NCBI GenBank assembly: GCA_023645945.1
Contig: JALAIB010000005.1
Coordinates: 1 to 56,081, forward strand
Direction: 5' to 3'
Source: Diploschistes diacapsis
Taxonomy: Eukaryota
Length of the DNA stretch: 56,081 nucleotides
The position numbers were made by a program, and so were the translations under genes. The notes beneath the pieces are model-generated. The model did no database searches and was not told where the DNA came from. It saw nothing but the letters and a program-made list of their open reading frames with translations. Each line of letters opens with the position of its first letter. The first letter of the stretch is position 1. Below are positions 1 to 50,892 of the stretch, piece by piece.

Positions 1-141
1 TATCGAATATAAGGGTACATGGGATTCAATTAAGTACTCTCCGGGACGGTTCCTAGGAGATGAGGCGCCCATCCGCTAGGGATTTTCCCGGGTAGTACTT
101 ACATTGAATGCCATGTATCTAAGGGCCTAATTGTAAACACG
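1..141 (+). mobile_element. 3' end of a cox1 group I intron (window starts inside it), containing a long hairpin
   Basis: Ends in G immediately before cox1 coding sequence resumes (G GTA TAT GCA ATG ATG TCT = ..VYAMMS). Positions 13-120 fold back on themselves. Confidence 0.65.
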
Positions 142-4457
<4,316 letters not shown>

Positions 4458-4746
4458 CCATATAATTGATAGCTTCATAAAAACATAAAGTGCTGTCACT
4501 TAGAATATTTTATTGTTAATTGATTGGGTTATTATTATCTGCAGTTCTCTATAAAATGTGTAATTAAGATGATAGGCATTTGTAATGGTTATAATACTGG
4601 AAGTTTATTTTATAGATTATTTTGCATATTTTGTAATATTTGCATAAGGACGAGGGAAAGTAAAACCTCTATAACCACCTGATAGAAAACCTTCTAGTTT
4701 AATTTAGATATCTTATTGTTCGTATTTAAGTACACTTATTTTTATT

Positions 4747-4784
4747 GGTATAACACCTACATTATAAAAAGTAGGTGTTATACC
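4747..4784. terminator. Perfect 14-bp stem hairpin (possible terminator or processing signal)
   Basis: GGTATAACACCTAC-10 nt-GTAGGTGTTATACC; function inferred only. Confidence 0.35.
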
Positions 4785-4811
4785 TTGGTAGATAAGTAAG
4801 ATAGCTACACG

Positions 4812-4997
4812 TTAAAGCTGCATATATTACAGGTTTTACTCTTCGGAAAAGCCACTCTAAACAAAGGTGGGTAACTAATCATGTACTAAGTATAGTAGAC
4901 TGCATTAATCCCGAACTAAGTCCTGGAAAAAGATGGTTTGTAGTGAGAAGAATGATATCTTAAAGCGTTACATAGAAGCCATCTTTATTTGCTGACT
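4812..4997 (+). repeat. ~185-bp direct repeat, copy 1 (structured non-coding element)
   Basis: Near-identical to 18988-19171 (CTTCGGAAAAGCCACTC...GAAGCCATCTTT). Confidence 0.9.
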
Positions 4998-5359
4998 AAA
5001 AATTTAGTATAAAATATACTTGGTATCAAATCTTCTCTATAACGTGTTGTTAACTGAAATCCCTTTGCTATATACTCTACAGATATAATAACACGAAAGT
5101 CAGGGGGGGGGGGTACCAGGTTTAAATGAAGAGTGGGTCTGGACAAAGCACTTTTATATTCTGGACATGAGCCAGTTATGTTACTATTACATCAATCCAC
5201 AATATATATAGTATATTAATAAGAATATAGTACTAAATGTCTGAGTTCACATAATAGTTAGATTATGTAGTGATTACCCATTTATAAAGAATGTCTAATT
5301 ATAACACTACATATATAGTATGTTAGTAATTATAGACGTAAATTTATTTAATAAATGGT

Positions 5360-5428
5360 GGTCCTATGACTAAATCTGGCAGAGCGGAATACTGTTAATA
5401 TTTAGGTAAGTGTTTAATTCACTATATA
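5360..5428 (+). pseudogene. trnN: Degenerate trnN(GUU) copy
   Basis: AGAGCGGAATACTGTTAATATTTAGGTAAGTGTTTAATTCACT matches the trnN at 25289 but acceptor and D stems are broken. Confidence 0.7.
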
Positions 5429-5500
5429 AGCGTAATAGTATTAATGGTAAATCATTGTGCTTCGGACATAAGGTTGTGAGTTCAAGTCTCACTTGCGCTA
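5429..5500 (+). tRNA. trnR: tRNA-Arg(UCG)
   Basis: Acceptor AGCGTAA/TTGCGCT, anticodon loop CTTCGGA, T arm GTGAG-TTCAAGT-CTCAC. Confidence 0.75.
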
Positions 5501-6077
5501 AACGTTTTTAGTTTTGCGTTCTACTTATAAAAACCTAAATTAGGGATATATATTGGTAAGATTGTTTTTAGCTAAAGCTTAATAGTTATACTATCTGGGC
5601 TAAATACTTTAAAATTTAATATTTTTTTAATCAATTTTTCTAGTTATTTTTTTGTTAAGTATAAGCACTAGAATAGTTATTGAGTCATCACTCAGGTAGA
5701 GATAACTATTTACACCAAAGACAAGAGCTTTAAATCTTGAATAGACATATGTCTATTCTACTCATTAACAGCAATTTTGAAGTTTTTAACAACACCATCT
5801 TTACTGTAAAAGACACTAGTTATAACCCCTGCTTGTTTATCCAGCTCAATATTTAGAGGATCGTTATGCAACCCGATAACATCAACAAAAGGAGAAACAG
5901 AATAATGACGTCTAAACGAAAAGTTCGTTCAGTCAGTTCTCCTCCACCCAATTTTTATAATATAATACTAAATGTTTAACTTGACATAATAGTTATATTA
6001 TATAGTAATTAGCCATTTAGAAATAACAATGTATAATCATAACATTAGATATATAGTGTATTAGTGATTCTAGATAA

Positions 6078-6317
<240 letters not shown>

Positions 6318-6449
6318 TATTTATTATACCTTGTCTGGTTGTATTTATAGCTACAAAAAAACAAATGTTAAGACCTTGTATGGTTTTATTAATAGCTACA
6401 AAAATTATATAAAGTAGTTATAATAGTATAGTACAAAATGTTTGAGTAC

Positions 6450-6592
6450 ACATAATAGTTATATTATATAGTAATTAGCCATTTAGAAATAACAATGTAT
6501 AACCATAACATTAGATATATAATGTATTAGTGATTCTAGATAAAAATTTATTAAACAAATGGTACAAGCAGCAAAAATAATAGGAACCGGTT
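6450..6592 (+). repeat. Duplicate of atp9 upstream region plus first 11 codons
   Basis: Near-identical to 5984-6126; abuts the end of the plasmid DNA polymerase. Confidence 0.9.
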
Positions 6593-6594
6593 GA

Positions 6595-9500
6595 CAACAA
6601 CACAGGCAATTTATTCTTAATAGTAGCGTATCCTTCACCATAATTTATTTTTGTTATAGATTTAAACCCTTTTAAAGTTCACCATGGTAAGCCTTTTGGA
6701 AATCTTCTTTACTTACAGATTCAGATAAAGCATTATTAAATTTTATAGTGGTTTTATTATCTTTATCTTCTATACAATATGTTTTATTACCTAAAAAATA
6801 AGCCTCTTTAATGTTATGCACCAATTTGAATTTTCCTATTTCATTACCAACCAAGTCATTGTTTAACGGTTTATCTGTGACAATGTTATCTATATCGCTA
6901 TAATATATTTTACCTCCATTACGAAGAATATTTAATTTTACTTTGTTCATGTATACTCTTGCGTATGCTGTCACAGCAGAACTTATAGCAACTGAAACAC
7001 TCTTTAAGTTTTCTTGCAAGAAAACGTCCTTAGCGTCACTGTTTTTTAATAGATTTAGTTGTGTTTCTTTATAATCAACTTTATGATCTTCACATATATC
7101 TGCGGATATACTTGCTTCATATGTTACAAGTAATTTGTCATTTATATATTTTACATCACCTACTATTTTTCTAGTCTGTAATATTTCCTGGTATTCTTCA
7201 TTAGTTACTAATCTAGTTATAGATTTGTTTAGATTCATACCGAACCTACCTATTAAACTATTTAAAAATAATTTAGCTATATTCTTTTCTACTGTGTTTT
7301 TAGCATTAGATTTAATACTATAAAAATTATCTACGTACTTTGTAAATACGTCGTATGATCTATCAAAGTTATACCCATGTAATACATATATTTTATACCC
7401 TTCTTCATATGCAAATTTTAACTCTTCACTAAAATATCAACCTTTAATACAACCAATTGGGTTATATATACTTTTTTCTGAAAACTTTGTTGGTATTAGC
7501 CCTAAGTAGTCGTCAGTAGTCTGTATTTCACAGTAGTAAAAACCAAATAAATTATCTTTACAGTCTTGTATGCTCTTATTTATTGTGCTTACGTAAGTAC
7601 AATTTAATCCAGGCATAGGGTTTAATGCTGCATACGGGTATAGCGAATTCACGTCATAATCATATAAATCCTTTCCGTGTGGTATATATACTTCCACTAT
7701 TCCCCCATAATAACTTTCTTTTATATCGCTGTAAACAGATTTTTTATTTATTAAAGGTATATTATTTTGATAGAATTTCTTTAAATATATAGCCATAGCT
7801 AGACTTGATATTGTATAATAATCTTTTACTTCTACACCATAATATGTACGTATGTACTCCATAAAAATCTTCATTATTTCATATAGACTTTTCAAATCAC
7901 CCTCTAAATACTTTATTGTTTCATCTTTAGTATTTCAGTTCTTAACTCTCTGTTCTTCTCCCATCATTGCGTCATCAAGATCTATACCAATGTTTTCATA
8001 CTCCTCTGCACTTATATTATCAAAATAGTGTTTACCAGGCTTTACACCACTATAGAAAAGCGTTTTATCACTTACAAATTCATAAGGAAACAGACCTTTT
8101 ATAACACTCGGCTTATATCTTTCACAAAGTTCAGATAATTTATTTGTCAAAATATTATAAGAGTCTACTATTTTAATTTTGTATCTTTTCTTATATGTTT
8201 TATTGGGATCTTTACCTTTGTAATAAAACGTCTTTCAAACTACTAAACATATAATTTTACCATCTCTAACAATAGGTTCATATTGATAAACATCAGGATT
8301 TTTTTCACATAAAGAAACTACAATACGTAGTAAGAAAGCTACGTCAAATTTGGCAAAGTTATGTACATAGAAAACATAATTATTATATGTTTATTTAAGC
8401 ATATCATTAAGACAATTTATTATTATCGCGTCTGAATCTAAAGACTGATCTATATAAGAAGTTTTTATTCCAAAAAGGTCTCTTTGTTCAGGATCAGCAT
8501 AAAAACCTGTCGTATAAACTTTTAATATATTATCTTTATTAAGATACATTTCAAAATCAAGAGTACCAAATTTATAAATAGCGTCACCTTTTTTTAAAGC
8601 TGTTTTAGGGTTTATAGACTTAAACTGCTGACAAATCTCTTTAGCAACTAGTTCATTTTTTATAAAGTATAAAGTTACATTTCCTGTTGTTCTATAAAAA
8701 CTATCTTGATCTTGTTTTTCATCTACTACACTACTTCTTTTATCTCCGTCTACGTAGTATATATCAATTTCGTTTACGTCAGGTAAGATGCTTTTCACAG
8801 TAGTTATCATAATATTATCTTTATCCATAGATTCATAAAAATCTACATCTCTTGTAAAACCTTTAAAATCCTCATAATAATCCTTTACACGCTCAGCGAA
8901 ATTTATTCTTTCACTACTTTTAAGTATTATATACTTTACTAGTCCATCTACTACAACTTTTTCTAATTTTACTCCAAAATGATTAATATCTGATGTTATA
9001 GGTAAAAAACTTAAACTAGTATTTAGTTTAGATACATTAACTAAATCTTTATGCTGTTTTAAAGGTACTGAGAGTTTCTTACGTTTTACTATAGTATCCG
9101 TGTAATATACTCTTGAAAAGATAAATTGAATACCTATAACTTGATTATACTGAATATCATATTTTTCTAGCGTATCAAGCAATCTATTAGACACCTTTAA
9201 TAAAATATTTTCCATCTTTAAAAATAAACTATTTTTATCCCTATATTGAAAAAAGAATTGGTGTCCTAAAGTTTTTCATTCTGTAACAGATCAATTATTA
9301 CTTTTACTAGTTGTTTCTATTTTATATTGTATTCTTAATAACAAGGAGTACCTTGTGTCTATATCACATTTTACAAAATAATCATACACCAAAGCTTTAT
9401 CATCTAGAGAATCTGGACTAAGATAAAAGATGTTTTCTCTAACCCTTTTTCCAATAGAAGCGACAGAAGAGACATACCGAGTGAAAAGTCGATTTTTTTT

Positions 9501-9599
9501 TTTTATGTTAAATATCATAGAATTAATTATTATTAAATAAAAGGACGTTAAAACATTAGATTTAGGCCCTAACAGCCACCGGATAAGCATAAAAGCCAA
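6595..9599 (-). pseudogene. dpoB: Linear-plasmid-type (protein-primed) family B DNA polymerase, decayed
   Basis: One frame with TGA=Trp: ExoI TLDFEMY, ExoII FYVHNFAKFD, motif A YDVNSLYP, motif B KLFLNSLIGRFGM, motif C altered to YSDIDN; internal TAA at 8391-8393; frameshift or truncation near 6672. Confidence 0.92.
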
Positions 9600-10152
9600 A
9601 CTTTCTCAGCGTTTTCCACCCAGTATAGAAAAAATTTGCTTATTGATTTTACATTCCAAAAAGGTCCTCTTCTCTATATCGTACCGCTTTTTAAATCTAT
9701 ATAACCCGTTGACCTTTTTGGGATACAAGGAGTCATTTAAAAACAAAGGATACGGAAGGATTAGAACAACATTGTGAGGAAGCTTATAATAGGGGTAATA
9801 TGTTTGAGGAGGAACGTGAAAAGATGGTAAAGGGGTCCATAAAGGAAGAAAACGAATGGATGCGTAAATGTGCTGAATGTCACAATAGTGATAATATTTT
9901 ATCTCAAGAAGCTTCTGAAAAGCAAAAAGAGCAATAATTTTTAGTATTATGCTGATCCCAACCTAGAACAACTTAGTTATAGGAATCTCTAGGATTAATT
10001 TTGATATATACCAGATATAAGTATAGTCATTTAGTGATAATTTATCTAAATACATTTGGTACCTATTGAACCCTTGACACTCTATTATATTTAACAGTAA
10101 AGTTAAGCCTGGTACAGTGTAAATATAACTACTGTATTCTTAATTTAGTAAA

Positions 10153-10929
10153 ATGAAAAAAGAACTGATTAATATCTGTAGCCCATTAGATCAATTTGAA
10201 ATCAGAAATTTAATAAGTCTAGACGCTCCTATACTATTTAATATTCATATATCCGTAACAAATATAGGTCTATATTTGTGTCTAGGTGCATTTGTTGTTT
10301 TATCTTTAAACTTAGTGGCTACTAATGGTAATAAAATAGTATCTAACAAATGATCTTTAGTACAGGAAACAATATATGCTACTGTGCATAGCATAGTGAT
10401 AAATCAAATAAATACAAAAAAAGCACAAATATATTTTCCTTTTATATATAGTTTGTTTTTATTTATACTAATTAATAATTTAATAGGTATGGTGCCTTAC
10501 AGTTTTGCTTCCACAGCACATTTTGTATTAGCCTTTTCTGTAAGTTTTACCGTAGTACTAGGTGCAACATTTTTAGGTTTTAATAAACACGGGCTAAAAT
10601 TTTTTTCTTTATTTGTGCCTGCTGGCTGTCCTCTAGGATTGTTACCTCTTTTAGTATTAATAGAGTTTATATCATATTTAGCAAGAAATGTAAGTTTAGG
10701 TCTACGTTTAAGTGCAAATATCTTGAGTGGTCATATGCTATTAAATATATTAGCAGGATTTTGTTATAATATTATGACATCAGGTTTTATATTCTTATTT
10801 GTGGGTTTAATACCTTTAACTTTTATTATAGCATTTTCTGGTTTAGAGTTGGGTATAGCCTTTATACAAGCCCAAGTGTTTGTAGTATTAACTAGTAGTT
10901 ACATAAAAGACGCATTAGATTTACATTAG
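10153..10929 (+). CDS. atp6: ATP synthase subunit 6
   Basis: SPLDQFEI, SLGLRLSANILSGH, IQAQVFVVL...DALDLH. Confidence 0.97.
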
Positions 10930-11020
10930 TCAGAAGCATAAATCTTGTTTATTATATATATTTCTAGGTTTAGAAAATTACATCTATAAAATTGTATATA
11001 TATAATATAAGAATATTAAA

Positions 11021-11167
11021 ATGCCACAATTAGTACCATTTTTTTTTATAAATGAAGTTATATTTACTTTTGTTTTACTTATAATAATGATATACGTGTT
11101 TACTAAGTACATATTACCTAAATTTGTACGTTTATTTTTAACACGTCTTACTTTACTTTTTAAGTAA
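11021..11167 (+). CDS. atp8: ATP synthase subunit 8
   Basis: MPQLVPFFFINEV...KYILPKFVRLFLTR, 48 aa. Confidence 0.97.
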   Translation: MPQLVPFFFINEVIFTFVLLIIMIYVFTKYILPKFVRLFLTRLTLLFK

Positions 11168-11179
11168 ACTTTATAAAAC

Positions 11180-11248
11180 GTTCTTATTAGCTTAACTAGA
11201 GCTAGCCACTTACAGTGTGCTGGTTAGGTTCAAAACCTCCTAAGAGCA
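11180..11248 (+). pseudogene. Degenerate tRNA-like sequence directly before nad2 (identity uncertain, possibly former trnR-ACG)
   Basis: Acceptor GTTCTTA/TAAGAGC and AGGTTCAAAACCT T arm present; D and anticodon arms shortened. Confidence 0.5.
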
Positions 11249-12928
11249 GTGTTGATTTCATATATAATTAGCCTATTATTATCTAATGCCGTCGCTTTAA
11301 GACGTGATTTATCTATCTATTATAACCGTACTTTAGTTTATATTTTATTTTATAATTTTATATTAGGGTATTTTAGTTTAAAAATACTATCCCTAAATAA
11401 AGGTATAGGTTTATATGGAGGTCTATTCAATAGTACTGCTATAAGCAACACTTTTCATATCTTTATTTTTTTTTTAACTTTTATTATACTGTTAATTACT
11501 AGCTTTTATCCAAGAAAAATTTGAACAAATATAAGTTTAAATGTTAACAAATTATTGTTTAATACACATATATTTAACACTAAATTGTTAAATAAAAAGG
11601 GGGATTTGTATAAAATAATTGAGTACCCATTAATATTATTGTTCATAATAACAGGAGCTATTTTTCTTATAAGTAGTAGTGATATAATTTCTATATTTTT
11701 ATCGATAGAATTGCAAAGTTATGGTCTATATTTAATAGCTAGTATACATAGAAATAGCGAATTATCTACATCTGCAGGTCTAACATATTTTTTATTAGGA
11801 GGGCTATCTTCTTGTTTTATTTTGTTAGGTACAGCTTTACTGTATACAAATTCAGGTGTTACTAACTTAGATGGATTTTATTTAATAACTAATATATCAG
11901 AAGTAAAGGATAATATGATCAATATAATATCTTGATATGGCGCTACTTATATAAATTATTCTTTATTAATAATGTCTGTAGGGTTATTATTTAAAATAAG
12001 CGCCGCTCCATTTCATTTTTGAAGTCCTGATGTGTATGATGCCATTCCTACTGTAGTTACAACATTTGTAGCTAATATAGCTAAAGTTTCTATTTTTATA
12101 CTTTTTTTAGAAATAGTTCATTATACTAATAGTTATTATTCACTATTTAATTTTAATTGAACTATAAGTTTACTTATAAGTTCGTTATTATCTTTAATAA
12201 TAGGTACGGTATTGGGATTAAACCAATCAAGAATAAAAAGATTATTAGCTTATAGTACTATCTCCCATTTAGGTTTTATACTATTGGCTTTAACTATAAA
12301 CAGTATAGAATCTGTGCAAGCCTTTATATTTTATATTATGCAATATTCTATATCTAACATAAATGCTTTTATTATAGTAATAAGTATAGGATATACTTTA
12401 TACGTATACATTAATGATAGTAAAGAGTATAAAACACTGGTAGATAAGAATAACTCACCTATACAGCTTATAAATCAAATAAAAGGGTATTTTTCTATTA
12501 ACCCTATGATGGCCATAAGTTTAACCATAGTGGTATATTCTTTTGTAGGAATACCCCCTTTAATAGGTTTTTTTGGTAAACAAATGGTTTTATCTTCTGC
12601 TATAGATAAAGGATACATATTTTTAGCACTAATTGCAATATTAACAAGTGTAATAAGTGCTGCTTATTATTTAAATATAATAAAAGAATTATTTTTTTAC
12701 CATTCCGACTATAAATTAGACATTAATTTAGAAAATAAAACATTCAACAGTTTTATTTTAACAAAAGTTTCAAAATTGAAAATACCATTTAATGTTAATA
12801 ATATAACATTGTCTACAAATTTAAGTATTACTATTTCAGTTTTAACTTTAATTATTTTATTATTTATAATAAATCCTCAAGAATGATTAAGTATAGCTAA
12901 TATATTAGCCATGATAATGTTTAATTAG
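11249..12928 (+). CDS. nad2: NADH dehydrogenase subunit 2 (GTG or TTG start)
   Basis: [56 protein letters not shown] directly followed by nad3 ATG. Confidence 0.95.
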
Positions 12929-13393
12929 ATGAGTAGTATTACCTTTTTTACTGTTTTTATACCCATATTAGCCTTAGTGCTATTAACAATTAATTTTATA
13001 TTTGCCCCTCATAGCCCTTATCAAGAAAAAGGTAGTACATTTGAATGTGGGTTTCACTCCTTCCTTGGTCAAAATAGAACACAATTTAGTATCTCCTTTT
13101 TTATTTTTGCTTTACTATTTTTATTATTTGATCTTGAAATTTTATTAGTATATCCTTATGTTGTAACAGCTTATATTAACACTATATACGGATTAATTAT
13201 AATGTTAGTTTTTTTCTTAGTATTAACCTTAGGATTTGCTTTTGAACTAGGTAAAAATGCACTAAATATTGATAGCAAACAAATATCCTTAAAACGTAGT
13301 ACAGTAAAATCGGACATAGGTATGTTTGTACCAGTTATAGGATTAGTGGAAATATGCAATAATATACCATCAATATTGCAATTTTTGTGTTAG
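12929..13393 (+). CDS. nad3: NADH dehydrogenase subunit 3 with a short extra C-terminal tail
   Basis: EKGSTFECGF, FLLFDLEILLVYP, FELGKNAL. Confidence 0.95.
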   Translation: MSSITFFTVFIPILALVLLTINFIFAPHSPYQEKGSTFECGFHSFLGQNRTQFSISFFIFALLFLLFDLEILLVYPYVVTAYINTIYGLIIMLVFFLVLTLGFAFELGKNALNIDSKQISLKRSTVKSDIGMFVPVIGLVEICNNIPSILQFLC

Positions 13394-13490
13394 GCCTATG
13401 TATTATATTAGTTGTAGTACCTTAAGTAAATAATGGTAAATTTGCAGAGATGAGGTGATATTAATCATAAATCTCAAACAAGCAATAATT

Positions 13491-13567
13491 GTTACCATGC
13501 ATGATAACCGCTTGACCGTTCTAATGTACCTTGTGATCATAAAGAACCAAATTCAAGTAGCAGCTGT
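13491..13567 (+). repeat. 77-bp inverted repeat, copy A
   Basis: Exact reverse complement of 18638-18714. Confidence 0.9.
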
Positions 13568-13874
13568 GCCAATTTAATTCTATATTTATATTAGTAACCT
13601 TAGTACACATAAACCTGGGCCTAACACGGGTTTAGGTTCTACAGGGGATCCTGGTTTACCTAGACCCGTATAATATTTCGAACCAAGACCAATCATGTAT
13701 TAGTTTAAGTGCTTTTATACTTTAGTACAAATATTACATAAATATGTATAATCACGGTTAGAAAACGGTCGATAGGTTTGTAATAGGTAAAAAAAACAAG
13801 CCTATGTACTTTTGGCTAAATAGTTTATCAGATGAGGCAAATATAATCATAAAAAAAAAAAAATAATTACAACA

Positions 13875-14144
13875 ATGAATTTATCACTTATACTTTTTTT
13901 AATTGGTATTTTGGGATTTGTGTTAAATAGAAAGAATATTATACTAATGCTTATTTCTATTGAAATAATGTTATTAGCAATAACACTTTTAATACTAGTG
14001 AGTTCATTAAGCTATGATGATATATTAGGTCAAGTATACGCAATATATATTATAACAGTAGCAGGTGCAGAATCAGCTATAGGTTTAGGTATACTAGTAG
14101 CATTTTATAGATTAAGAGGTAGTATTGCAATAGAATATAAATAA
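13875..14144 (+). CDS. nad4L: NADH dehydrogenase subunit 4L
   Basis: [31 protein letters not shown] 1-nt overlap with nad5. Confidence 0.98.
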
Positions 14145-17100
14145 TGTATCTAGCCATAATAACTTTACCTTTATTAGGATCAATAACATCTGGTTTCTTT
14201 GGTAGAAAAATAGGAATAACAGGATCACAAATAATTACATGTAGTTCAGTGATAATTACAACATTACTAGCTATAATTGCCTTTACAGAAGTAGGGTTAA
14301 ACAATATACCAGTTTCCATAAATCTATTTAAATGAGTAGATTCGGAATCACTGAATGTATTATGAGGTTTCAACTTTGATTCTTTAACAGTTTCAATGTT
14401 AATTCCGGTGTTAATAGTATCATCCTTAGTGCATGTATATTCTATAGGTTATATGAGTCACGATCCTCGAGGTCGCGTTAGGGGAAAACGCGTCTATGGG
14501 GATAAATTGTCAAACTCCGGGGATATCCTAAAGCTTAAGGTACCAAGCTGTAGTCGAAAGGCTATTAGTGGCTGAAGTAATTACTCAGGTATGGTAACAA
14601 GCCTTAAGATGAGTGAAAACGAAATGGACAATCGCGGATCTAAATTCCTATGCATACATAGGATAAAAGAGCAAAGAGTAGACGGCAGTTGATCTATTAA
14701 ACCACATTTAATGGATTTAAGGTGTACTCTAGGGGGTTTCGAAAGGAACGGAGGTATAAAACTCGGTTTCAACATACAACAGTGTTGAAATTCCCACGTC
14801 AAAAACCCATCTAAGCAATTCGAAAAAAAAAATTTTTCAACCTATAATTCTACTATTGTAAATCCTGGAGTCTGATCTGGTCTAATAGATGGTGAGGGTT
14901 CATTTAGTGTGATAGTAGATAGAAATAAAAAGCGTAAATTAGGTTGACGTGTTCATATTAAATTTCAAATAGGTTTACACACTAAAGACCTTAACTTATT
15001 ATATCTATTACAACAATACTTGTCTGGTATCGGTTCTATACATTTAGCTCTAAACCGAGAGATAGTTAATTATTCAATAGATTCTATTGAAGATTTAAAT
15101 AAACTTATTCTTCATTTAGAAAAATATCCGTTGTTAAGTCAAAAAGCCGCGGATTTTTTTTTATTTAAACAAGTGGTAAACCTTGTAAACAATAAAGCTC
15201 ATCTAACTGTTGAAGGTTTAAAGCAAATATTAAATATAAAAGCATCTATGAATTTAGGTTTATCTGACATGTTAAAATCAGAATTTGCTGGATATACTCC
15301 AGTTGAAAGACCTATAATAAATTCTGATAATGTAAATTTAAACCCTCATTGAATTTCAGGATTTGTTAGCGCTGAGGGGAATTTTGATGTTCGTATACCA
15401 TCGAGCAATAGTAAATTAGGTTATCGAGTACAATTGAGATTTAGAATAACTCAACATAGTAGAGATAATAAATTAATGGAGAAAATAGTTGAATATTTTG
15501 GGTCAGGAAAGATATACAAATATGGTGGTAAGTCTGCTGTTAGTTTAACAATAGTTGACTTTACTGATATTACCAATATAATAATACCATTTTTTAATGA
15601 AAATGCTATAATTGGTATAAAACTCTATGATTATCTTGATTGATGTAAAATTCATAGTTTAATGATTAATCGTTCTCATTTTACGGTTGAGGGTATAAAT
15701 TCTATTAGAAAGATAAAATCTGGTATGAATATGGGTAGAAGTTTTGAAGATAAATAACCATTGTTAGTATCAAACACCCAATAAATCAATTGCAGGATAA
15801 ATTTGACTTAAATGCATAATCAAAGATTCTTTAGTTATTTAAGCTTATTTACTTTTATGATGATAATTTTGGTAACTGCAAACAATTATTTATTAATGTT
15901 TGTAGGTTGAGAAGGTGTGGGTATTTGTTCATACTTATTAGTCAGCTTCTGATTTACTAGAATAGCAGCTAATCAAAGTTCAATATCTGCAATGTTAACT
16001 AATAGAGTGGGTGATTGCTTACTAACTATAGGTATGTTTACTATACTGTGATCTTGTGGTAACATAGATTATAGTACAGTATTTTCACTAGCACCTTATA
16101 TAAATGAAAATATTATAACAATGATAGGAATATGTTTATTAATAGGTGCTATGGCTAAAAGTTCTCAAATAGGTCTTCACGTTTGATTACCTATGGCTAT
16201 GGAGGGTCCAACTCCTGTATCTGCATTAATACACGCTGCTACTATGGTAACCGCCGGTGTATATTTATTAATGCGTTCCTCACCTTTAATAGAATACAGT
16301 TCAACTGTATTATTGTTATGTTTATGAATAGGTGCTATTACTACTGTGTTTAGCTCTTTAATAGGGTTATTCCAACAAGACATAAAAAAAGTTATAGCTT
16401 ATTCCACTATGAGCCAACTTGGAATGATGGTTATAGCTGTAGGTTTATCATCTTATAACATAGCATTATTCCATTTAGTTAATCATGCTTTTTATAAAGC
16501 ACTATTGTTCTTAGGTGCAGGTGCAGTTATTCACGCTGTAGCTGATAACCAAGATTTCAGGAAATATGGGGCACTAAAACAATTTTTACCTTTAACATAT
16601 TCAGTTATGCTAATAGCTTCTCTTAGTTTAGTAGCATTCCCATTCATGACAGGATTTTATAGTAAAGATTTTATATTAGAATCTTCTTATGGTCAATTCT
16701 ACTTTTCGGGTATAGCAGTGTACTTTGTGGCAGTAATTGCTGCTATGTTTACCACTTTATATTCCATAAAGGTTTTATACTTGACCTTTATAGCTAATCC
16801 TAATGGGCCTATTACTAATTATAAATTTGCCCATGAAGGTAACATATATATGAGTTTACCTTTAATAATATTAGCTATTTTTTCCGTCTTTTTTGGTTAT
16901 ATTACTAAAGACATGTTTATAGGGCTAGGTTCTAGCTTTTTCTCTGATAATAGTTTATTTATTCACCCTTTGAACGAAATATTGCTTAACACAGAATTTG
17001 CAGTGCCAATATTTTATAAACTATTGCCTTTATTATTAACTGTATCTTTAAGTATTTTATCTTTAGTTATAAGTGAATATTTTTCTAGCTGAGTTATTAA

Positions 17101-18373
17101 ATTTAAATTTAGTTATATTGGTTATAATATATTTAGTTTTTTTAATCAACGTTTTTTAATTGAACTTTTATATAACAGGTATATTACAGATTTAATATTT
17201 AAATTAGGAGGACAAACTACCAAGGTGTTAGACAAAGGTTCTATAGAATTAATAGGGCCTTATGGTTTAGAAAAGGGATTAATAAATATGAGTAAAAATC
17301 TAAGTAAACTAGATACAGGTGTAGTTACATCTTATGCTTTATATATCTTAATAGGTTTAATATCTTATATTATAATACCTTCAATCTCAACTTATGATAA
17401 TTCATTGTTGTTATTAATAATAATATCAGTATTTATCAATATAAATAAATCTATTACTAGTAGCAATAATCATAATACTTTAAATAGTTCGTTATTGTTA
17501 AGCTCTTTTGGAACTGGTTTAACTAAAATTCTAACTAGAATTTTTTCTAAAATAACAATTGCATCCCTTCTAGCGGGTTGTATTTCGGTTTTTATAATTA
17601 CAATGATTAAATTCAAACTAGACATACCAAACATACCCACAGACTTTTACAACGTATTACTCACTAGTTATAGCTTTTTTGCGTGTAGATTATTCCTTTG
17701 AGGCTTGATAGAATACTTATTAGAAAACTTTAATATCAAAAATTTAAATGTAAAAGATTTTCTAGATTGTTTACATTATTTTTTTAATGTACTGCGTGGA
17801 GTACTGAGTGGACAAAATAAAGCTACTATGGGACATATGGACAATGAAGAGCTACCTCTGAGCAATAAAAACAAAGAGCTACCTTTGAGCAAGAAAGGTA
17901 TGACATTAAATATGGACAACATTTTTAATCATCCAACCGGATGACGTCCCCCTAAAACTGGTGTATGTCCAACTGTGGGCCATGATCCTATTCAATATCC
18001 TGTAAATAAGGATGAATCAAATAACCCAAGAGCGGATATGTTAACTAATTCGGTAGTACCAAGCGAAATGGAAAAAAACAGGATTATAGGGGTGTTAAAA
18101 CAGTTTGAGGGAAGGGATGCTAAACCTGCACTACTATCAATATTTACAGTATGAGAACTTAATTGATTGGGCAGAATGTTATATGCAGCTGCCGGTAATC
18201 ATAATCCATCCTACCACACATTAAAGAATGATGTTTTAGCTTTAAATGGTAATTTTGGTTTACCAGATACTGGTTTAATTACATCAGAAATCCAACATAG
18301 GTACGTAGTAGATGGTGTAATTTCCAAAAGGATGCTTAGATTTTTAGAGGAGAATAAACATTTGAAGGTGTAA
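14144..18373 (+). CDS. nad5: NADH dehydrogenase subunit 5; exons 14144-14467 and 15815-18373; about 960 aa including a ~300-aa C-terminal extension
   Basis: [52 protein letters not shown]; no TAA or TAG after the usual end (~17450) until 18371. Confidence 0.95.
14468..15814 (+). mobile_element. nad5 group I intron (position 324) with in-frame LAGLIDADG ORF 14468-15757
   Basis: U|...G| boundaries; [10 protein letters not shown] and [11 protein letters not shown] motifs in an uninterrupted frame. Confidence 0.9.
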
Positions 18374-18391
18374 AAAACTTATGTTAAATAA

Positions 18392-18537
18392 ATGGTACAA
18401 GCAGCAAAAATATGGGTATAGGTTTAGTTACTAAAGGTCTTACAAGGGCTGATGTACTGTTTGGAGTTTTAGGGTTTGCATTCGCTCTGGGTTTATTTGC
18501 ATTAATGATGGCTTTCTTGCTATTATACGTGGCATAA
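18392..18537 (+). pseudogene. atp9: Internally deleted atp9 copy
   Basis: ATGGTACAAGCAGCAAAAATA start and identical 3' end GGTTTATTTGCATTAATGATGGCTTTCTTGCTATTATACGTGGCATAA; middle lost. Confidence 0.88.
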
Positions 18538-18637
18538 TATTTACTAAACCTTTTGTAGGTTTATATATAGCTATAAATAAAAGCATTAACTAGATAAATT
18601 AATAAAATTACTATAATAACTATAGAATTGGGCTGGT

Positions 18638-18714
18638 ACAGCTGCTACTTGAATTTGGTTCTTTATGATCACAAGGTACATTAGAACGGTCAAGCGGTTA
18701 TCATGCATGGTAAC
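18638..18714 (-). repeat. 77-bp inverted repeat, copy B
   Basis: Exact reverse complement of 13491-13567. Confidence 0.9.
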
Positions 18715-18987
18715 TTATCCTGTTTAGTATACAGCGCATAGATCCCAATTATCCTTTGGTTTTCTCCTTGGAGGATTCAAAGGAATAATTTATTCTTTTT
18801 TAATTACTTTCCTTTTGGATAGAAAATTCTGTCCAACTACGGATTAAAGAGCTAACGTGTTATCGTATATATATGTGTATATAGTGGTATACCAATGTAA
18901 AATACGGTACATACAGTCCCGTTACTGTAAGGGTCAGGGCAGATACTAATTTCTTATATTAATCTTTAGTAGATGAAAGTAATACAT

Positions 18988-19171
18988 TAAAGCTGCATAA
19001 ATGATAGGGTTTAGCCTTCGGAAAAGCCACTCTAAACAGAGGTGGGTAACTAATCATGTACTAAGTATAGTAGACTGCATTAATCCCGAACTAAGTCCTG
19101 GAAAAAGATGGTTTGTAGTGAGAAGAATGATATCTTAAAGCGTTACATAGAAGCCATCTTTGTTTGCTGAT
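18988..19171 (+). repeat. ~185-bp direct repeat, copy 2
   Basis: Near-identical to 4812-4997. Confidence 0.9.
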
Positions 19172-19421
19172 TATAAAATTTTTATAATAGTTGAATGATT
19201 TAATATGTATTTATAATAAAATACTATTAAATCAATATAAGTATTTATTATTTAGATATAACTAGAGCTTAGTAGCATTACCTTACCACTTCACATTTAA
19301 GTGTAGGTTTTACCAAGCCTATATGTTTTTATAACAAAATAACTTATAAATATAACACATATGTATATAATTAAGTATTGAAAAAAATGTTAGACTTAAT
19401 ATTATTATAATTAAAATAAAA

Positions 19422-27246: not shown

Positions 27247-28844
27247 TTATGTAATTAGATAAGGGTTGTTTAAAGTTGGAATATTTTTACTTAGTACTCA
27301 ATCAATTGTAGGTATTTTATATTCAATACTTTCATAGATAAAAGTTCTTTTATCTGCTATTCATTCTATATCATCACCATATGCATTTAATATAGATTCT
27401 ATGATATTTTTATCAAATGTTCTTAGATAAGGTTCATCTGAGTATAATTTTTCATATACACTTTTCAACAATGATATTAATGACCCCATTTTGTCCGCAG
27501 TTGTAGCAAAACAATCGTGTATTGCATAGAAACTATAGTTATATTGATACTCTTTTTTAAATGATAAAAATAATAATGTAAGTGCTGAAGCATCCAGTGA
27601 ATGAATTAAATTAGGCATAAGAGCAACACATTGTTTTCATTTGTCGTATACATTAGAAACACTTCTAGTTAAATTTAATGTAGTTCTACTATAACTAAAA
27701 GGTTTAATTTTTACAGTTTCTGATTTTAAGTAACTTTGAGTTACTAATAAACCACTCCCTGAATTTAAAACTATAGGTAGATTTAAAATATTGTGAATCT
27801 CTGCTACAGTTGTTAAGTAATCTCTTAACTTTTTAATATTTTCAAAGTCTACATTTATTATAGTCATAATAGTTTTAACTAAGACTGTAACATCCTTATT
27901 ATTAATTTTACTACTATTTTTAATATATCATACCATTTTTTTATCGTCTACTCCTGTATCTTCATATTATTTATCATAATTAGATAAAGAATCCTTAATA
28001 TACAATTCCATAGAATATCTTGTTGCATTATATGGAATAGTCATTATAACACTTTTAATATCGCTACGTTCTCAGACAAACTCATATAGTCTTGAGTAAT
28101 TTTCATGATAAGCGTCTGATGTATCACCCAATTTTGATTTTAATATATCAATTAACCTTATTATAATATAATTGTAAAAATCATTTGGTTGTTTATCTTT
28201 GTCAGATGTATTTAAGTTAACAATATCATATAACTTAGTTTCATGAGATAATAGAGATAAGTGTTGGAAACCGTTACAACTAGCGTCTAATTGTATAGGT
28301 AAAGATGTTTTAAATTCATTAGTATTAAAATCTTTTAAACAATCATAATATTTTTTTAATTCTAGACAAAAAGCCAGGAATAGATGCTTATTTTTAGCGT
28401 TTTGTAGTAAACCACTTTCTTCAAAATTATAAATTTTATCTTTATTATCTTCTACTCAGGATATTATTTTCACATATGATTTTTTATCTAGACCATTACC
28501 ATAACAATTAGCACCATATATATATAGATAGTTTATTTGATTTTTATTATCTTTATGAATTGTTGATTCATTGCTAAATAATAATAAACTTTTAGATAAA
28601 TCATTACTTTGGTAATTAAAATAATCGGGTACACAATATACTCTACCTCTATTATCTAATCTAACAGGAAAATATATTCTATATAGATTTATATATATAT
28701 TCGCTATGTTTAATATATTAAATTCTAGTACATACTTACTCATTTCAGATTTATATTTTTTCTCAAAATAGCTTGAAGATCATTTATTTAACTTGACATC
28801 AAAATTCTCTTTTTTTATATTTTCTATCTGCTTTTCATCAATAA
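27247..28844 (-). pseudogene. rpo: Plasmid-type single-subunit (T7-like) RNA polymerase, C-terminal half
   Basis: FPVRLDNRGRVY, PIQLDASCNGFQH, RSDIKSVIMTIPYN, PNLIHSLDAS, AIHDCF in one frame; internal TAA at 27967-27969. Confidence 0.92.
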
Positions 28845-28917
28845 GAGACTTTAATTTAATAGGTAAAATATATGACTTTTAATCATTATAATAGGGGTTC
28901 GAGTCCCTTAGGTCTTA
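28845..28917 (+). tRNA. trnK: tRNA-Lys(UUU)
   Basis: GAGACTT/AGGTCTT acceptor, CTTTTAA loop. Confidence 0.88.
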
Positions 28918-33579: not shown

Positions 33580-34269
33580 ATGGGTCCAATATACCTTATT
33601 GTTGAAGGCTTTCTAAGTGGTTTAAGTGCTTTATCTTTAGTTTTACTTACCATTTCTTCTATTCTTTTTGGTGTTTTTGTTATAATAGGTAAAAATCCTA
33701 TAGTTTCTGTTCTATTCCTAATAGGGTTGTTTGTTAGTATAGCATTGTATTTAATATTTATTGGTGTCAATTTTATAGGTATAGCCTATTTATTGGTCTA
33801 TGTAGGAGCCGTTTCCATATTATTTCTTTTTATACTTATGTTAATTAATATAAGAATTTCTGAGCTATTAAGTGATAGTAAAAATAGTATATTATTAGTA
33901 CTTTTAATAGGGTTATTTTTTACTGGTACAATAATTGATATAATACCTATTCAACTTATAAGTAAATATTTTGATATTATAGAAAATACAATCTTTTTTA
34001 CTTGTTTATATTATTGAGAAAGTAATATTGTATGATTGGGTAATATATTAAGTATAGGTAGCATTCTGTATACTAGTTACAGCATATGATTAGTGTTAGC
34101 TTCAATTATATTACTATTAGCCATGGTGGGTGCTATAGTTATTACAATTAAGGATAAAGATTTATATTCTAGCATAATTAGTAAAGAGTATAATTTAACT
34201 ACATTGAATAGTAAAGTTATACCTACAATTGATTTAAATATTGGATTAGATCCAAATCAAAACCTGTAG
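33580..34269 (+). CDS. nad6: NADH dehydrogenase subunit 6
   Basis: KNPIVSVLFLI, YLLVYVGAVSILFLFILML, IILLLAMVGAIVIT; TAG at 34267-34269. Confidence 0.95.
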
Positions 34270-34386
34270 GATGCTCCCAGATCTTTTAATAAAGATCTAA
34301 TAAATCATGCTTTTAAAGATCCAAGTCAAAATCTGATGGATGCTCCCAGATCTTTTAATCCAGATCTAATAAACAATGCTTTTAAA
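34249..34386 (+). repeat. 69-bp tandem duplication at the nad6/orphan ORF junction
   Basis: GATCCAA.TCAAAA.CTG[TAG/ATG]GATGCTCCCAGATCTTTTAAT..AGATCTAATAAA..ATGCTTTTAAA, two copies. Confidence 0.9.
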
Positions 34387-35547
34387 AATCCTATAAAATC
34401 TACACCATCTAATGAGTCTATCCAGTCTTCTTTAGATTGTATTAAAAATATGCAAGAAAAATGTAATACATTTAAACCTGCAAGATGTTTAACTACTGAC
34501 AATGTAAGTGAGGCAACGGACTATGTAAATAATACTCTAACGCTTTTCCATAGTTATTACCAAGTAATTGATTATAGATATTTAGAATATATAAGTATGA
34601 TGAAATTATATCTACTAATTTTCGTTTTACTTGTTTCTTTTTTTTTACCTATTCTTACTAGAGCATTTGACGGCCTATGCAACATATTGATGGATATTAT
34701 AAGAAGATTGGTCCGTTCAATTATGTTAATATTAAATAGAGTGTATCCTATTCTCTTGAGAATACTAAATAGAATACTAAATAGAATGCTAAATAGATTA
34801 ATGAGAGGTTATCGATTAATTCAACGTTTACCTAGAGTACCTCCTCTTCTAACGCAAAATAGAAATATCTTTGGAAGAATAGCTGTTAGACTAAGATGAT
34901 ATTATGGATTATGAAGAGTGCGAGTGGCTGTAAACTATTGAACAGAAAGGAATCGTGTTATGTTTGTGGATAATTTACTGAATAGTTATCCTGGAACGTA
35001 TGGCGAGCTAGGAATGCTGATAAGAGCTAGCGGTTATAACCCTACAAGAGAACAAGCTAGAATTTTATTTGATAGTGATGGCTTGAGGAATTATCGTAAC
35101 TATTTAATGACCTATAGACGTATACCATGAGGATTAGAACCATTTAATTTCTCGCCACAGATAATTCGTACTCAACGGGGGCTACTGCCAACCTACACAA
35201 GGCTATTAGATATTTTAAATAGCATTACTCGTCAAGCAGTGAGTAATCAGCTATTACAAGCTGAAAATATTGCTCTAAATATAGAACAATATGCCGTATT
35301 ACGTCATGAAATGGCAGTAAGTCGTAGAGTTGTGAACTCTAATGTAGATCTTTATATGTTTGTAACAGGTGGTTATTGAACAGCGGATAATAGTTATGTT
35401 CTGCCCGCAGAGGATGTACTGACATTATTAAGCGAATTGCAAACCCTGCAAGATTTTTGACTACTATATGTAGAATATTTAAGAGCAAAAATTGCATTTA
35501 TGATTGCTCTTGAGAGAACAAGAAGATCAACATCATGATGATTTTAG
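34336..35547 (+). CDS. Orphan 403-aa ORF in frame with nad6 (one TM helix, Arg-rich amphipathic segment)
   Basis: Uninterrupted with TGA=Trp from ATG 34336 to TAG 35545-35547. Confidence 0.75.
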
Positions 35548-38700: not shown

Positions 38701-41700
38701 AATGAAAAACAATTATAGTGTAGAACGACGTAACTTCAGAAGTAATTTCAATAAAGGCAAAAAATTGTCTAAATAAACCTTATAAAAACTAAAAGATAAA
38801 AGTTTAAATAGAAAAAAGATAACTTACACTAAAAAAAGTTTATTAGCTATGAAGAAAAGATCTAAAGCTATAATATTATACAATTTAGATAGAACTGTGT
38901 ATGGTTATTTTAATAGTATAACAGAAGCAGCAAATATTATAAATTGTGGTGATAAAACAATAAGAAGAGCTTTAAAGACTGATAAAAAGATATTAAAAGG
39001 AAAGTATATTGTAAATTATAATAAAGAATTAAATTATAGTCCCATGAGTTTAAATTTCTATGCAATTTTTATAAAAAAATAGAAATAAAGTGGAACAGTA
39101 TGACAGTACTGTTGAAAAAAAAAATAGATTAATTTGTTTTTTTGGCGATGTTAGTGAAAACGGTTAACTATTATGATAAAGACCGTCGGTTATATAAATG
39201 ATCGCTACAGACTGGGTCACTAATGGGTGACTGAAATGTTGCTTAATGTACAGTCGGAACTTTTAGCTATAAAGCTAATAGAATATACGAATTCAAAGTT
39301 ATTCTAGCTTAATTTATATTATTTCTTAAGTAAGTTTGTATGTATTACCATATGGTCAAATGTCACTATGAGGTTTTATTGTAATGCCTCAAATGTATGT
39401 TTTATATTCTATTCTATTTATATCTTTCCAATTTATTGGTTATTCAGAAAAGTTGACTAGACTTAAAGGTATATACAGAGTAGGGCCTCACAATAAAGAT
39501 GTTGTATGTATTATATTTGGGTCTCTGTTAGGAGATGCTCACGCTGAAAAAAGACAACAAGGTAATGGAACTAGAGTTACTTTCTACCAAGAACATTCTC
39601 ATGTTGAATATATGTTTTATTTACATAATTTATTATCTAACTTAGGATATTGTAAACCAAAACAACCTACAGTAGGAACAAGATTGGGTATTAAAGGTAA
39701 AGTAAGAAAAACAGTGAGATTTGCAACTTGAGCTTATACTAGCTTTAATTGAATACATGATTTATGATATAAAGATGGTATAAAAATTGTACCTGAGTGT
39801 ATAAGTTATTATTTAACTCCCTTAGCTTTGGCTATCTGGATTATGGATGACGGAGCTAAAGTTGGTAAAGGTTTAAAGTTTTCTACAAATTCTTATAGTT
39901 ACACAGATTGTTTAACTCTTGTAAGCGCCTTAAATGCCAACTTCAGTATTAAAAGTACAATACAAAGTGCAGGTTCTGAAAATCAATATATTATATATAT
40001 TTGAAAAGAATCTATGGATAATTTAAGAAATATAGTGTATCCTTATATTATACCTGAAATGAGATATAAAATAGATTAAAAATATAATATAATAACATAC
40101 ATAGTTATATAGCTACTTTTGTAAAAAGCGTTAGTATAAATAAAGCAATATTTACTTAAAATTTATTTAGACCGCTATATAGCAACATCTATGAAAACGG
40201 TCAATAATGTTTGTTTAGCATCGAGACCGTCGGTATAGTAAAATATCGCTACAGACTGGTCCATAGATGGGTGTCTGAAATATTTATCAAAATTGATAAC
40301 TAATTATGATGCTTAATGTACAGTCGGGTTTTTCCATACTATTAAGATCGTAATAGTATGCACAAGACAATATAGACAATTATACTGCGTAGTAGTATAT
40401 ATATTGAACATGGTTTACCTATTTTAAACATTTTAGATTTAAATAATTCTAAAAGTCTTATAGGCACAGTATAGGTAAATTGAAAAAGTGGCAACAGTTA
40501 TAACTAACCTTATGAGTGCTATACCGTGAGTAGGACAAGATATAGTAGAGTCAATAAAAGATATAAAATAAAATTTATGTTAGTAAAATCTATATTACCC
40601 ACAATAGGTAATATAAACAAAAATGGGTAAAAAAAAGTAAAAAATTTAAGACTAGACAAAAAAGAATACACCCCCCCCATCTTTTATAGCACTATTAGTT
40701 GGTATCATAGATGGTGATGGTTACATTGAAAGAACTAAACCTACTAAAGGGTTCATAACTATTAAACTTGTTATTTTAGTACATTTGGAGGATATTTATA
40801 CATTGGAATATATACATTCTATTTTAAAGATAGGTATTATATCTATATATAAGGATAATAGAAGTCCTACTTGTAAGTTAATATTTAATAAAACTGACTT
40901 ATAAGAAGTATTATTTCCGTTGTTTATATATCATAAAACATATTTTATTACTAACACTGGAAAGGACCAATTCAATCTAGCTATGTATATATTTAAAAAT
41001 GATATAAAATTATATAAACAAATTTCTAATAAACAAGATATACCCGCAGGTTTTGAACTATGTAAAACACCATTAGATTACACAAAGTTATCTAAAAATG
41101 AATAGTAGGGTTTACAGTTTCTGAAGGTTCTTTTTTTGTTATAAGCTTTGAAAATAATATTTAATACAAATAGAAAGATAGATAATCAAAACGAATTATA
41201 TAATCAGTTTAGTGTAAGTTCTAAATTAGATATAGAAACCGTTATGGATTTTTTTTTTCTTACTCCTTCGGAAGGGCTTACATCCTTTAATAGGTTAAAA
41301 AAACGTACAATATCTAAAGTGATTAGAGCTTTTACGTAATAGTTACCGCTATAAAAGTCTTAATTTTCCTAACAATTTATCAGAAAGTTTTACTACACAT
41401 AATTTATTTAAAATGGGCTCCTTAGAATAGTAATATTCTATAGGCAAATGGGGAGAATTGCAAAAACACCCTACTATATTCCACCGTTTATAGGGTTATT
41501 TGCATCGGAGCTTAATTCGGTACTATTTAATAAAATTATTAAATGAATTAAGAACGTTCAACGACTAACGAGTGAGTAATACCAACAATAAGCTCGACAC
41601 GAAAACCCCACAACAAAGTTTTTTGGTTGAAGACATAGTCTAAACATTAGATAAACTAATGAAAATAAGCATTAAAAACTTATAAAATTTTTGTCATATG

Positions 41701-42346
41701 AGGTGGATTTTCAGTAAACAATGCGACATTAAACAGATTTTTTGCATTACATTTTGTGTTACCTTTTGTATTAGCTGCATTAGCTTTAATGCATCTAATA
41801 GCCTTACATGATAGTGCGGGTTCAGGTAACCCAGTAGGTGTATCAGGTAACTACGACAGATTACCTTTTGCTCCTTACTTTATATTTAAGGATTTAATAA
41901 CAATATTTTTATTTATACTGTTATTGTCTATTTTTGTATTTTTTATGCCTAATATATTAGGTGATAGTGAAAATTATGTAATGGCTAATCCTATGCAAAC
42001 ACCACCTGCTATAGTACCTGAGTGGTATCTTTTACCGTTTTACGCTATCTTAAGATCTATACCTAACAAATTAGTTGGTGTTATAGCTATGTTTTCAGCT
42101 ATATTAATATTATTAGCTATGCCACTTACAGATTTATCAAGATCAAGAGGTATACAATTTAGACCTTTAAGTAAAGTAGCATTTTATGTTTTTATAGGTA
42201 ATTTCCTAATATTAATGCAATTAGGTGCTAAACACGTGGAGTCTCCTTTTATAGAATTCGGTCAAATATCAACAGTATTATATTTTGCTCATTTTTTAAT
42301 AATAGTACCCTTTATTAGTTTATTAGAAAATAGTTTAATAGAATTA
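35726..42346 (+). CDS. cob: Apocytochrome b; exons 35726-36103, 37264-37278, 39339-39374, 40491-40551, 41694 to ~42346; no stop, continues into cox2
   Basis: [47 protein letters not shown]. Confidence 0.96.
36104..37263 (+). mobile_element. cob intron 1 (position 378, group ID) with LAGLIDADG pseudogene 36104-36840
   Basis: ID core GACCGTCGG..ATCGCTACAGACTGGGTCA..GCTTAATGTACAGTCG; RVGPH..ICGMLGD and WIMQDG; TAA at 36224 and a frameshift near 36395. Confidence 0.88.
37279..39338 (+). mobile_element. cob intron 2 (position 393, group ID) with a decayed membrane-protein ORF (~37300-38180) and a GIY-YIG pseudogene (~38183-39082)
   Basis: ID core near 39150-39258; [52 protein letters not shown]. 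Confidence 0.88.
39375..40490 (+). mobile_element. cob intron 3 (position 429, group ID) with intact in-frame LAGLIDADG ORF 39375-40079
   Basis: FGSLLGDAH and [11 protein letters not shown] core 40190-40327. Confidence 0.9.
40552..41693 (+). mobile_element. cob intron 4 (position 490, group IA-like) with degenerate LAGLIDADG
   Basis: [10 protein letters not shown] and [10 protein letters not shown] remnants with stops and frameshifts; GTTCAACGACTA, AAGACATAGTCT. Confidence 0.85.
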
Positions 42347-50740: not shown

Positions 50741-50892
50741 CTATGTATTATTATACACTATTATTTATAAATGGCCAGTTACTATATAATCTAACTATTA
50801 TGTGAACTCAGACATTTTGTACTATATTAATAGAGGGGAGCCCCCCAGATTTTCTATATGGGAAAAAAGTTAACTATATAGCTAGAGGGGCA

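Follow-up and report, generated by a model that had tools for sequence, protein, structure and literature searches.

A long in-frame extension of nad5 in a probable lichen mitochondrial genome: a candidate modular cargo gene with a hypervariable tail

What does it mean when the frame of an essential respiratory gene runs on far beyond the end of its protein? The question is raised by nad5 in contig JALAIB010000005.1, which is here called the window and is an entire 56,081-nt contig out of a 29-Mb genome, read with translation table 4. Its content of respiratory genes, rRNAs, and 23 tRNA calls fits a filamentous-ascomycete mitogenome, its Cox3 shares 87% identity with the counterpart in the Lecanoromycete Acanthothecis fontana, and the public runs that match it best include lichen and rock metagenomes; the genome is probably the mitochondrial one of a lichen fungus. 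Here, the only nad5 continues in frame for 306 codons (34.6 kDa) past its usual end. The reading that we develop, to which we give about even chances on the basis of sequence comparison, is that the extension is a modular cargo gene whose product is made by read-through of an essential gene and probably cut loose by a protease, and whose tail is subject to diversifying selection.

Consider first the frame itself, which lies on the + strand, as do the features below unless otherwise stated. Exon 1 (14144–14467, 108 codons) is followed by an intron with an in-frame LAGLIDADG open reading frame (ORF) (14468–15814, with boundaries inferred from the U/...G/ pattern and the restored SHDPHNQRFF), and by the conserved core of exon 2 (15815–17452), which includes the last two hydrophobic helices; with the extension, exon 2 covers 15815–18373. 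The original prediction, a stop-free frame from exon 2 to 18371 and a protein of about 960 aa, is confirmed: there is no stop under table 4 between 15812 and 18373, and the two exons add up to exactly 960 codons with one stop and the junction SHDPH-NQRFF. The usual end, codon 654 at 17450–17452, follows from comparison with solved ND5 chains and with Nad5 of Ramalina intermedia, given as 654 aa in Table S4 of PMC13706191. Residues 1–540 of exon 2 align with the solved chains (expect value, E, 5e-273), and the similarity stops at about residue 540. The core has the Pfam domains Proton_antipo_M and NADH5_C (E 2.7e-72 and 2.2e-8), the fungal C-terminus is complete, and the host gene is whole.

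The open extension frame is not a product of chance. When the bases of the extension are shuffled, none of 20,000 versions stays open over 307 codons (analytic P 6.7e-9), and its other five frames contain 27, 29, 28, 4, and 24 stops. Nor is the fusion an assembly artefact, since independent contigs from two of the sequence runs compared with the window bridge the junction without gaps: record 14 of run X4 spans 15800–18518 with 33 differences, and record 6 of run X2 spans 17131–18518 with 15. Furthermore, three database proteins (P0005, P0009, and P0010) hold the Nad5 core and the extension in a single chain.

The linker, KATMG, small duplication, KKGMTLNMD, and tail of about 150 aa named in the original prediction are all found as described. 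A polar linker with a basic amphipathic helix (17453–17551) leads to hydrophobic helix A (17552–17608), a clear transmembrane candidate that is homologous to a segment of the database protein P0008, and then to hydrophobic helix B (17654–17710). The claim of two hydrophobic helices stands in full for A, with a crude insertion score of −0.7, while B, at +2.4, is a marginal membrane span. The two occupy residues 35–53 and 69–87 of the extension and are modeled as a hairpin with low confidence. An amphipathic helix (residues 104–122; 17759–17815) lies ahead of the motif block (17819–17917), which consists of KATMG, a 27-nt duplication (ELPLS twice), and GMTLNMD; this block forms the boundary between conserved and hypervariable sequence and is a candidate processing site. 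The soluble tail (17915–18373; 152 aa, 17.2 kDa) has its folded part at about 17996–18355 and ends with TAA at 18371–18373. In the linker, LNS..SLLLSS may be a worn Cox1-end motif, although it is not significant at the DNA level; the idea of a cox1 DNA remnant in the linker was unsupported, as 805 and 719 of 1000 shuffles scored equally well.

The last 120 residues of the tail are modeled as a compact helical domain with moderate confidence (predicted local distance difference test, pLDDT, 62). The model of the whole extension (pLDDT 44.7) has generic helical-hairpin matches alone (best Z 6.6, root-mean-square deviation, rmsd, 2.6, 61 residues aligned), and a fold search with the tail model gave no standout match (Foldseek best E 0.75 for PDB and 0.55 for viral entries; VIA best Z 3.4, rmsd 3.0, 69 aligned). 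A weak fold match alone does not establish a new fold. At the sequence level, the extension matched no family in Pfam, PHROGs, or NCBIfam better than E of about 0.3 and nothing among PDB sequences; a Pfam scan at E up to 1 found no family in it, while the same scan detects LAGLIDADG in the ORF of the nad5 intron. A protein atlas searched with the P0005 tail gave no usable match.

What, then, is the extension related to? A search of 1.84 billion representatives returned four matches. In P0006, the 3′ part of a Cox1 that shares 77% identity over 193 aa with the Cox1 of the window runs through a different hydrophobic pair and NSFAMN into a tail of the nad5-extension type (36% over 120 aa, E 1.9e-13). 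P0008 has a Cox1-end motif, then an anchor homologous to that of the nad5 extension (33% over 90 aa), and then an unrelated tail. In P0007 the tail comes first, 39% identical to that of P0006, and the protein closes with a weak resemblance to the Cox1-end motif (E 0.024). The tail motifs are kept in three genomic settings at 32–39% identity. The window itself has an in-frame Cox1 extension of 266 aa (3657–4457) with a like layout of hydrophobic pair, KLTMGG, QHYMD, and a third, unrelated tail. From P0006, P0008, and this Cox1 extension follows that anchors and tails combine differently on two host genes, and it is highly likely, judging from these alignments, that modules have been shuffled between host genes.

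This also bears on two earlier claims. The tail had been called unrelated to the Cox1 tail, which is true of the Cox1 tail in the window, to which homology was rejected by comparison, and untrue of the Cox1 tail of P0006, from another fungus. Likewise, the nad5 extension had been taken as the second member of a module, for which the evidence inside the window is weak (20% identity to the Cox1 extension over 122 aa, E 0.002; hhalign probability 3%) and the evidence from P0006 and P0008 is good. The Cox1 tail of the window is charged and helical, with no family match; about 400 nt of it, with 3′ flank, recur with indels in GC-richer DNA on another contig (L006 1347–1744, G000:C2713), probably as a nuclear copy. 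Searched with a tail profile, 7999 longer proteins gave three hits and 3861 of near length gave one, with P0010 as the sole addition, and a word-indexed search with the extension accepted none of 1378 candidates. Among metagenome contigs, viral contigs, and prokaryote genomes no locus was confirmed, with patterns in which TGA-coded Trp may cause mitochondrial genes to be missed.

If the extension were a passive passenger, its differences among close relatives would tell. P0005, P0009, and P0010, ascertained as intact frames, form with the window an allele series, and all three of the database proteins found keep the extension frame. Relative to the window, the Nad5 core differs at 2, 2, and 4 of 414 residues in P0009, P0005, and P0010, respectively (0.5–1%), and linker plus helices differ at 4, 3, and 3 of 119 (about 3%). 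The tail differs at 16 of 154, 32 of 154, and 51 of 153 (10–33%). The divergence breaks sharply at TL[NQ]MD: variable columns number 8 of 414 in the core, 11 of 153 in the anchor, and 58 of 154 in the tail (anchor versus tail, p 7.8e-11). The sole indel seen among the alleles, a repeat expansion in P0010 right after MDN, is in frame.

Sequence runs X2, X3, X4, and X6, four out of 23 listed, were also compared with the window, with the caveat that the differences listed are 40 of 603. All 15 differences of X2 record 6 are among them: 14 of 14 changes in the extension are non-synonymous (neutral P 0.011–0.031), and 12 fall in 474 nt of tail, whereas the 844 nt of core have no more than 3 (p 6e-4). 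Taken together, the four runs have 23 listed changes, of which 21 are non-synonymous and none creates a stop, and 16 of 22 sites lie within 17897–18200; since 40 of 603 differences are listed, stops in X4 and X6 beyond these are possible. The main contigs of X2, X4, and X6 have no listed indel in the extension. Run X3 is a mix of thousands of short contigs, two of which, at depths of 42 and 16 against about 20,000, have gaps within the frame; we read them as rare variants or errors. Run X6 differs from the window at 13 places in 1387 nt of core and at 62 in a stretch of 1120 nt comprising the extension and a broken atp9 copy behind it, and its 5 gap bases all map to that copy. By eye, 11 of 14 listed residue changes in X6 are identical to those of P0005, and if X6 is a P0005-type allele, as this match suggests, the anchor has 4 changes and the tail 32, against 13–16 expected neutrally for each.

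These patterns bear on the notion of a neutral young insertion, in which a foreign ORF recently removed the stop and is tolerated, trimmed, or degraded, with decay yet to come. In its favor, nad5 ends are labile in lichens: 6 of 16 nad5 rows are long and stop-free, and the rest are intact, shorter, or slightly extended (PMC13706191, in the portion available). Other accessory ORFs of the window are fragmented, and the finding that no stop accompanies 90 or more residue changes reaches only P of about 0.04, for frames that were ascertained as intact. On the other side, neutrality would predict neither the strongly uneven divergence along the extension (p 7.8e-11) nor the excess of non-synonymous changes, nor indels in the X6 atp9 copy next to an extension without listed ones, nor tail motifs conserved across three genomic settings at 32–39% identity. 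We regard a neutral insertion as quite improbable. The original prediction had offered selection or recent arrival to explain the frame. Selection on the frame is supported by its presence in three of three proteins, though ascertained as intact, by the lack of listed indels in X2, X4, and X6, and by the far stronger conservation of anchor than of tail, while recent arrival alone fails to account for tails up to 33% apart on a 99% identical core. The extension is, on these comparative grounds, very probably translated and under selection.

How could such a protein be released from Nad5? The pattern of a hydrophobic residue, any residue, Met, and Asp or Asn occurs once per extension and not at all in 1410 residues of Nad5 core, Nad4, and Cox3. 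Elsewhere in the window, cob and cox2 form one stop-free frame (41669–43555) with no Met between ENSLIEL and DTPRPW, the mature Cox2 start; the linker between them holds one hydrophobic segment, and when yeast Cox2 chains in their mature form are aligned, their residue 1 falls on the Asp of DYC-DTPRPW. With cob and cox2 in a frame that lacks an intervening Met, processing of a polyprotein, or something equivalent, is required in this genome in any case. From the single motif per extension, its resemblance to the Cox2 site, and the Met-less cob–cox2 frame, we infer that read-through with proteolytic release is favored, and cleavage of the extension has, in our estimate, slightly better than even chances.

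The geometry of such a cleavage can be outlined. We take the usual end of Nad5, like that of Cox1, to lie on the matrix side. The two hydrophobic segments of this Nad5 match the terminal helices of Yarrowia ND5, where two helices follow the lateral helix (PMC8762328), so that the usual end should face the matrix. With one further span, the motif block would be in the intermembrane space, and with two it would be back in the matrix.

Should the 960-aa protein instead be assembled whole into complex I, helices and tail would be a lineage-specific accessory part. No canonical peptidase site was found in the extension, anchor and linker are conserved, and fungal ND5 already has an extra terminal helix (PMC8762328). 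Yet the same tail is not specific to complex I, as P0006 carries it on Cox1 in another fungus; the last ND5 helix of Yarrowia packs inside the NDUFA11 arch, according to the part of that study available, which may leave little room; and a structural subunit would not be expected to vary by 33% among close relatives. We hold a permanent extension to be quite improbable.

The main alternative operates on the RNA. The usual end of Nad5 lies inside a predicted hairpin at 17404–17470 (80-nt window set on this end, z −3.7), and if the transcript were cut there, a stop-less mRNA would give Nad5 of normal size, with cargo made from an internal Met (e.g., M151 or M155) or from a minor precursor. The hairpin beats all 62 grid windows along exon 2 (best z −2.6), although its own window was chosen after the hairpin had been noticed. 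Met codons are present at the motif, NAD4 and NAD5 mRNAs of C. sojae are processed upstream of their stops (PMC11789488), and the Ramalina authors raise the possibility themselves (PMC13706191). In contrast, the usual ends of cox1 and cob lack such structure (z −0.3 and −0.5), no shared 3′ motif of 8–10 nt includes nad5 among 15 gene ends, and trimming alone leaves the in-frame, conserved linker and anchor unaccounted for. We consider it unlikely. A search for an Rfam element near the junction found none, and tRNA punctuation was rejected, there being no tRNA gene between 5500 and 25202 to cut the transcript. A hairpin (z −3.8) is also present at the nad6 end. There, nad6 ends within a 69-nt tandem duplication (34248–34385), of which copy 1 reads TAG-DAPRS and copy 2 ATG-DAPRS, and a 425-aa orphan ORF (34270–35547) follows copy 2 in frame; it may be a former nad6 fusion, and DAPR resembles the mature Cox2 start. 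Comparison did not support homology of the nad5 tail to this ORF.

Several observations weigh against a cleaved, diversifying cargo. Imp1 recognizes [I/V][H/D/F/M]N-[D/E] as published (PMC8835746), and TL[NQ]M-D misses this strict motif, agreeing in the hydrophobic P3 and acidic P1′ alone; if helices A and B both span the membrane, the site would moreover face the matrix, away from Imp1. The hairpin lies precisely around the usual Nad5 end, and in yeasts the nad5 mRNA can be cut short before its stop (PMC11789488). The linker has no detectable derivation from cox1 DNA. The family is thin, with six tail sequences in total. As to selection, the pooled test on 21 of 23 changes is borderline (p 0.03–0.09, on the 40 of 603 differences listed), substitutions in the tails of P0009 and P0010 are not conservative by comparison with random point changes (mean BLOSUM −0.25 and −0.55 versus −0.34), and the sites that distant homologues have in common show just a marginal reduction in variability (14 of 53 versus 32 of 76, p 0.09). 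Fast divergence could reflect import of old alleles instead of positive selection. Recombination among alleles may have occurred, as contig sites support three incompatible splits (17973; 18114 and 18198; 17940, 17975, and 18099), but 11 of 11 informative protein columns favor one split.

With these reservations, the history of the proposed cargo gene may be pictured as follows. A cox1-tail and atp9 segment would have been copied behind nad5, grafting the cargo in frame onto its 3′ end, so that cargo would be produced whenever the essential subunit is produced. This is the simplest origin in view of a broken atp9 copy and a repeat shared with the flank of the Cox1 extension: the copy, with frameshift and deletions, begins 18 nt past the extension stop (18392–18537; intact atp9 at 6093–6317) and would be left over from the event, and a 204-nt repeat (18984–19187) is 93% identical to 4809–5012, downstream of the Cox1 extension. 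A 107-kDa precursor would then be inserted into the inner membrane, where a mitochondrial peptidase would release mature Nad5 of 73 kDa near the linker and free the 17-kDa tail at or near TL[NQ]M-D. Finally, the tail would act on a changing partner, such as rival mitotypes, plasmids or viruses of the mitochondrion, or a suppressor encoded in the nucleus, and diversify in response. A role in conflict is suggested by the pattern of change, the tail having no family match that would indicate its function, and we put the chance that conflict drives the diversification at a little under even.

Other features of the window concern its mobile and repeated DNA. The genome holds no second copy of the extension, as 17400–18600 matches itself and atp9 alone; blastn of 18374–19420 revealed no nad5 piece. 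The atp9 leader exists in several copies (5952–6126, 6418–6592, 5198–5291, and 50746–50832), of which one carries a truncated atp9 start (about 6559) and another lies inverted amid tRNA genes. A 115-nt inverted repeat (90%; 13491–13605 and 18600–18714) brackets the whole nad4L–nad5–extension block, and the contig terminus (55943–56081) is a TACAGG tandem array, a repeat that in X6 forms a loose end at 18635. Genes for polymerases of plasmid type, for DNA (PF03175) and for RNA (PF00940), are integrated in pieces that stops interrupt (6675–9962, 27250–28878, minus strand). In the cox1 intron region, between two endonuclease-like ORFs, a 181-codon orphan frame (1482–2027) has a hydrophobic N-terminal half, HAMQ, and an acidic coiled tail, a layout similar to that of the cargo modules. 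Finally, nad3 (12929–13393) has 154 codons, about 40 beyond its Pfam match, which may be a short extension.

Lost stops as such are already known. Stop-less ends of cox1, nad3, nad4, nad5, and cob recur in Ramalina and other Ramalinaceae, where 6 of 16 nad5 rows stay stop-free beyond the 654-aa end for 111 to more than 308 codons, and as here nad5 overruns that end and cob lacks a stop after ENSLIEL; the available part of that study scores stop positions, in contrast to the downstream sequence, homology, and selection considered here (PMC13706191). Foreign ORFs at gene 3′ ends, sometimes in phase, co-transcribed, and accompanied by gene fragments, are found as mORFs in Glomus and Allomyces, but these bring LAGLIDADG or GIY-YIG endonucleases and a duplicated host C-terminus (PMC3630166), neither of which was found in this extension. 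Mitochondrial polyproteins that need processing are exemplified by the continuous cox1–cox2 ORF of Pleosporales, including Stemphylium (PMC5626475), and by Imp1 maturation of Cox2 (PMC8835746). The former joins two core subunits, whereas the partner of nad5 is an orphan without a strict Imp1 match. In Phlebia, core genes are annotated with fused extensions that are, in the text available, treated as putatively non-translated and not analyzed for family or selection (PMC4019555). The portions seen of PMC6467859, PMC3847072, and PMC4618339 contain nothing on extensions, and a literature search, with most subscription journals outside its reach, gave no description of the cargo family. What is new is the shuffling of modules, Nad5 as host, and an allele series with conserved anchor and hypervariable tail.

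Two more distant systems offer analogies. Plant cytoplasmic male sterility ORFs are membrane-anchored orphans made of respiratory gene pieces, and bacterial polymorphic toxins have a conserved carrier followed, after a short motif, by a variable C-terminal domain. The nad5 extension has the latter arrangement, a conserved carrier set off by a sharp motif from a C-terminal domain that varies, and anchor and tail are recombined in P0006 and P0008. Polymorphic toxins come with an adjacent immunity gene, and male-sterility ORFs cause a reproductive phenotype that a nuclear restorer suppresses; downstream of the nad5 extension lies a broken atp9 copy, the host nad5 is whole, and the likeness is one of layout. 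That swappable anchor and tail modules, in frame on respiratory genes, proteolytically released and with tails in an arms race against rival mitochondrial genomes, plasmids or viruses of mitochondria, or the nucleus, constitute an undescribed polymorphic-effector system of fungal mitochondria is a doubtful proposition; if true, it would account for the recurrence of stop-less cox1 and nad5 in lichens.

Long read-throughs of cox1 and nad5 in lichens are recurrent and were recently reported without, in the part of the report available, an explanation (PMC13706191). The present case suggests that, in at least one of them, the added stretch is not spacer and encodes a structured, modular protein that changes unusually fast; annotation which trims nad5 at its conserved end would overlook such a cargo gene. 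If the conflict reading is true, mitochondrial DNA, usually viewed as a static respiratory set, would host adaptive effector genes that secure their expression by fusion to essential subunits.
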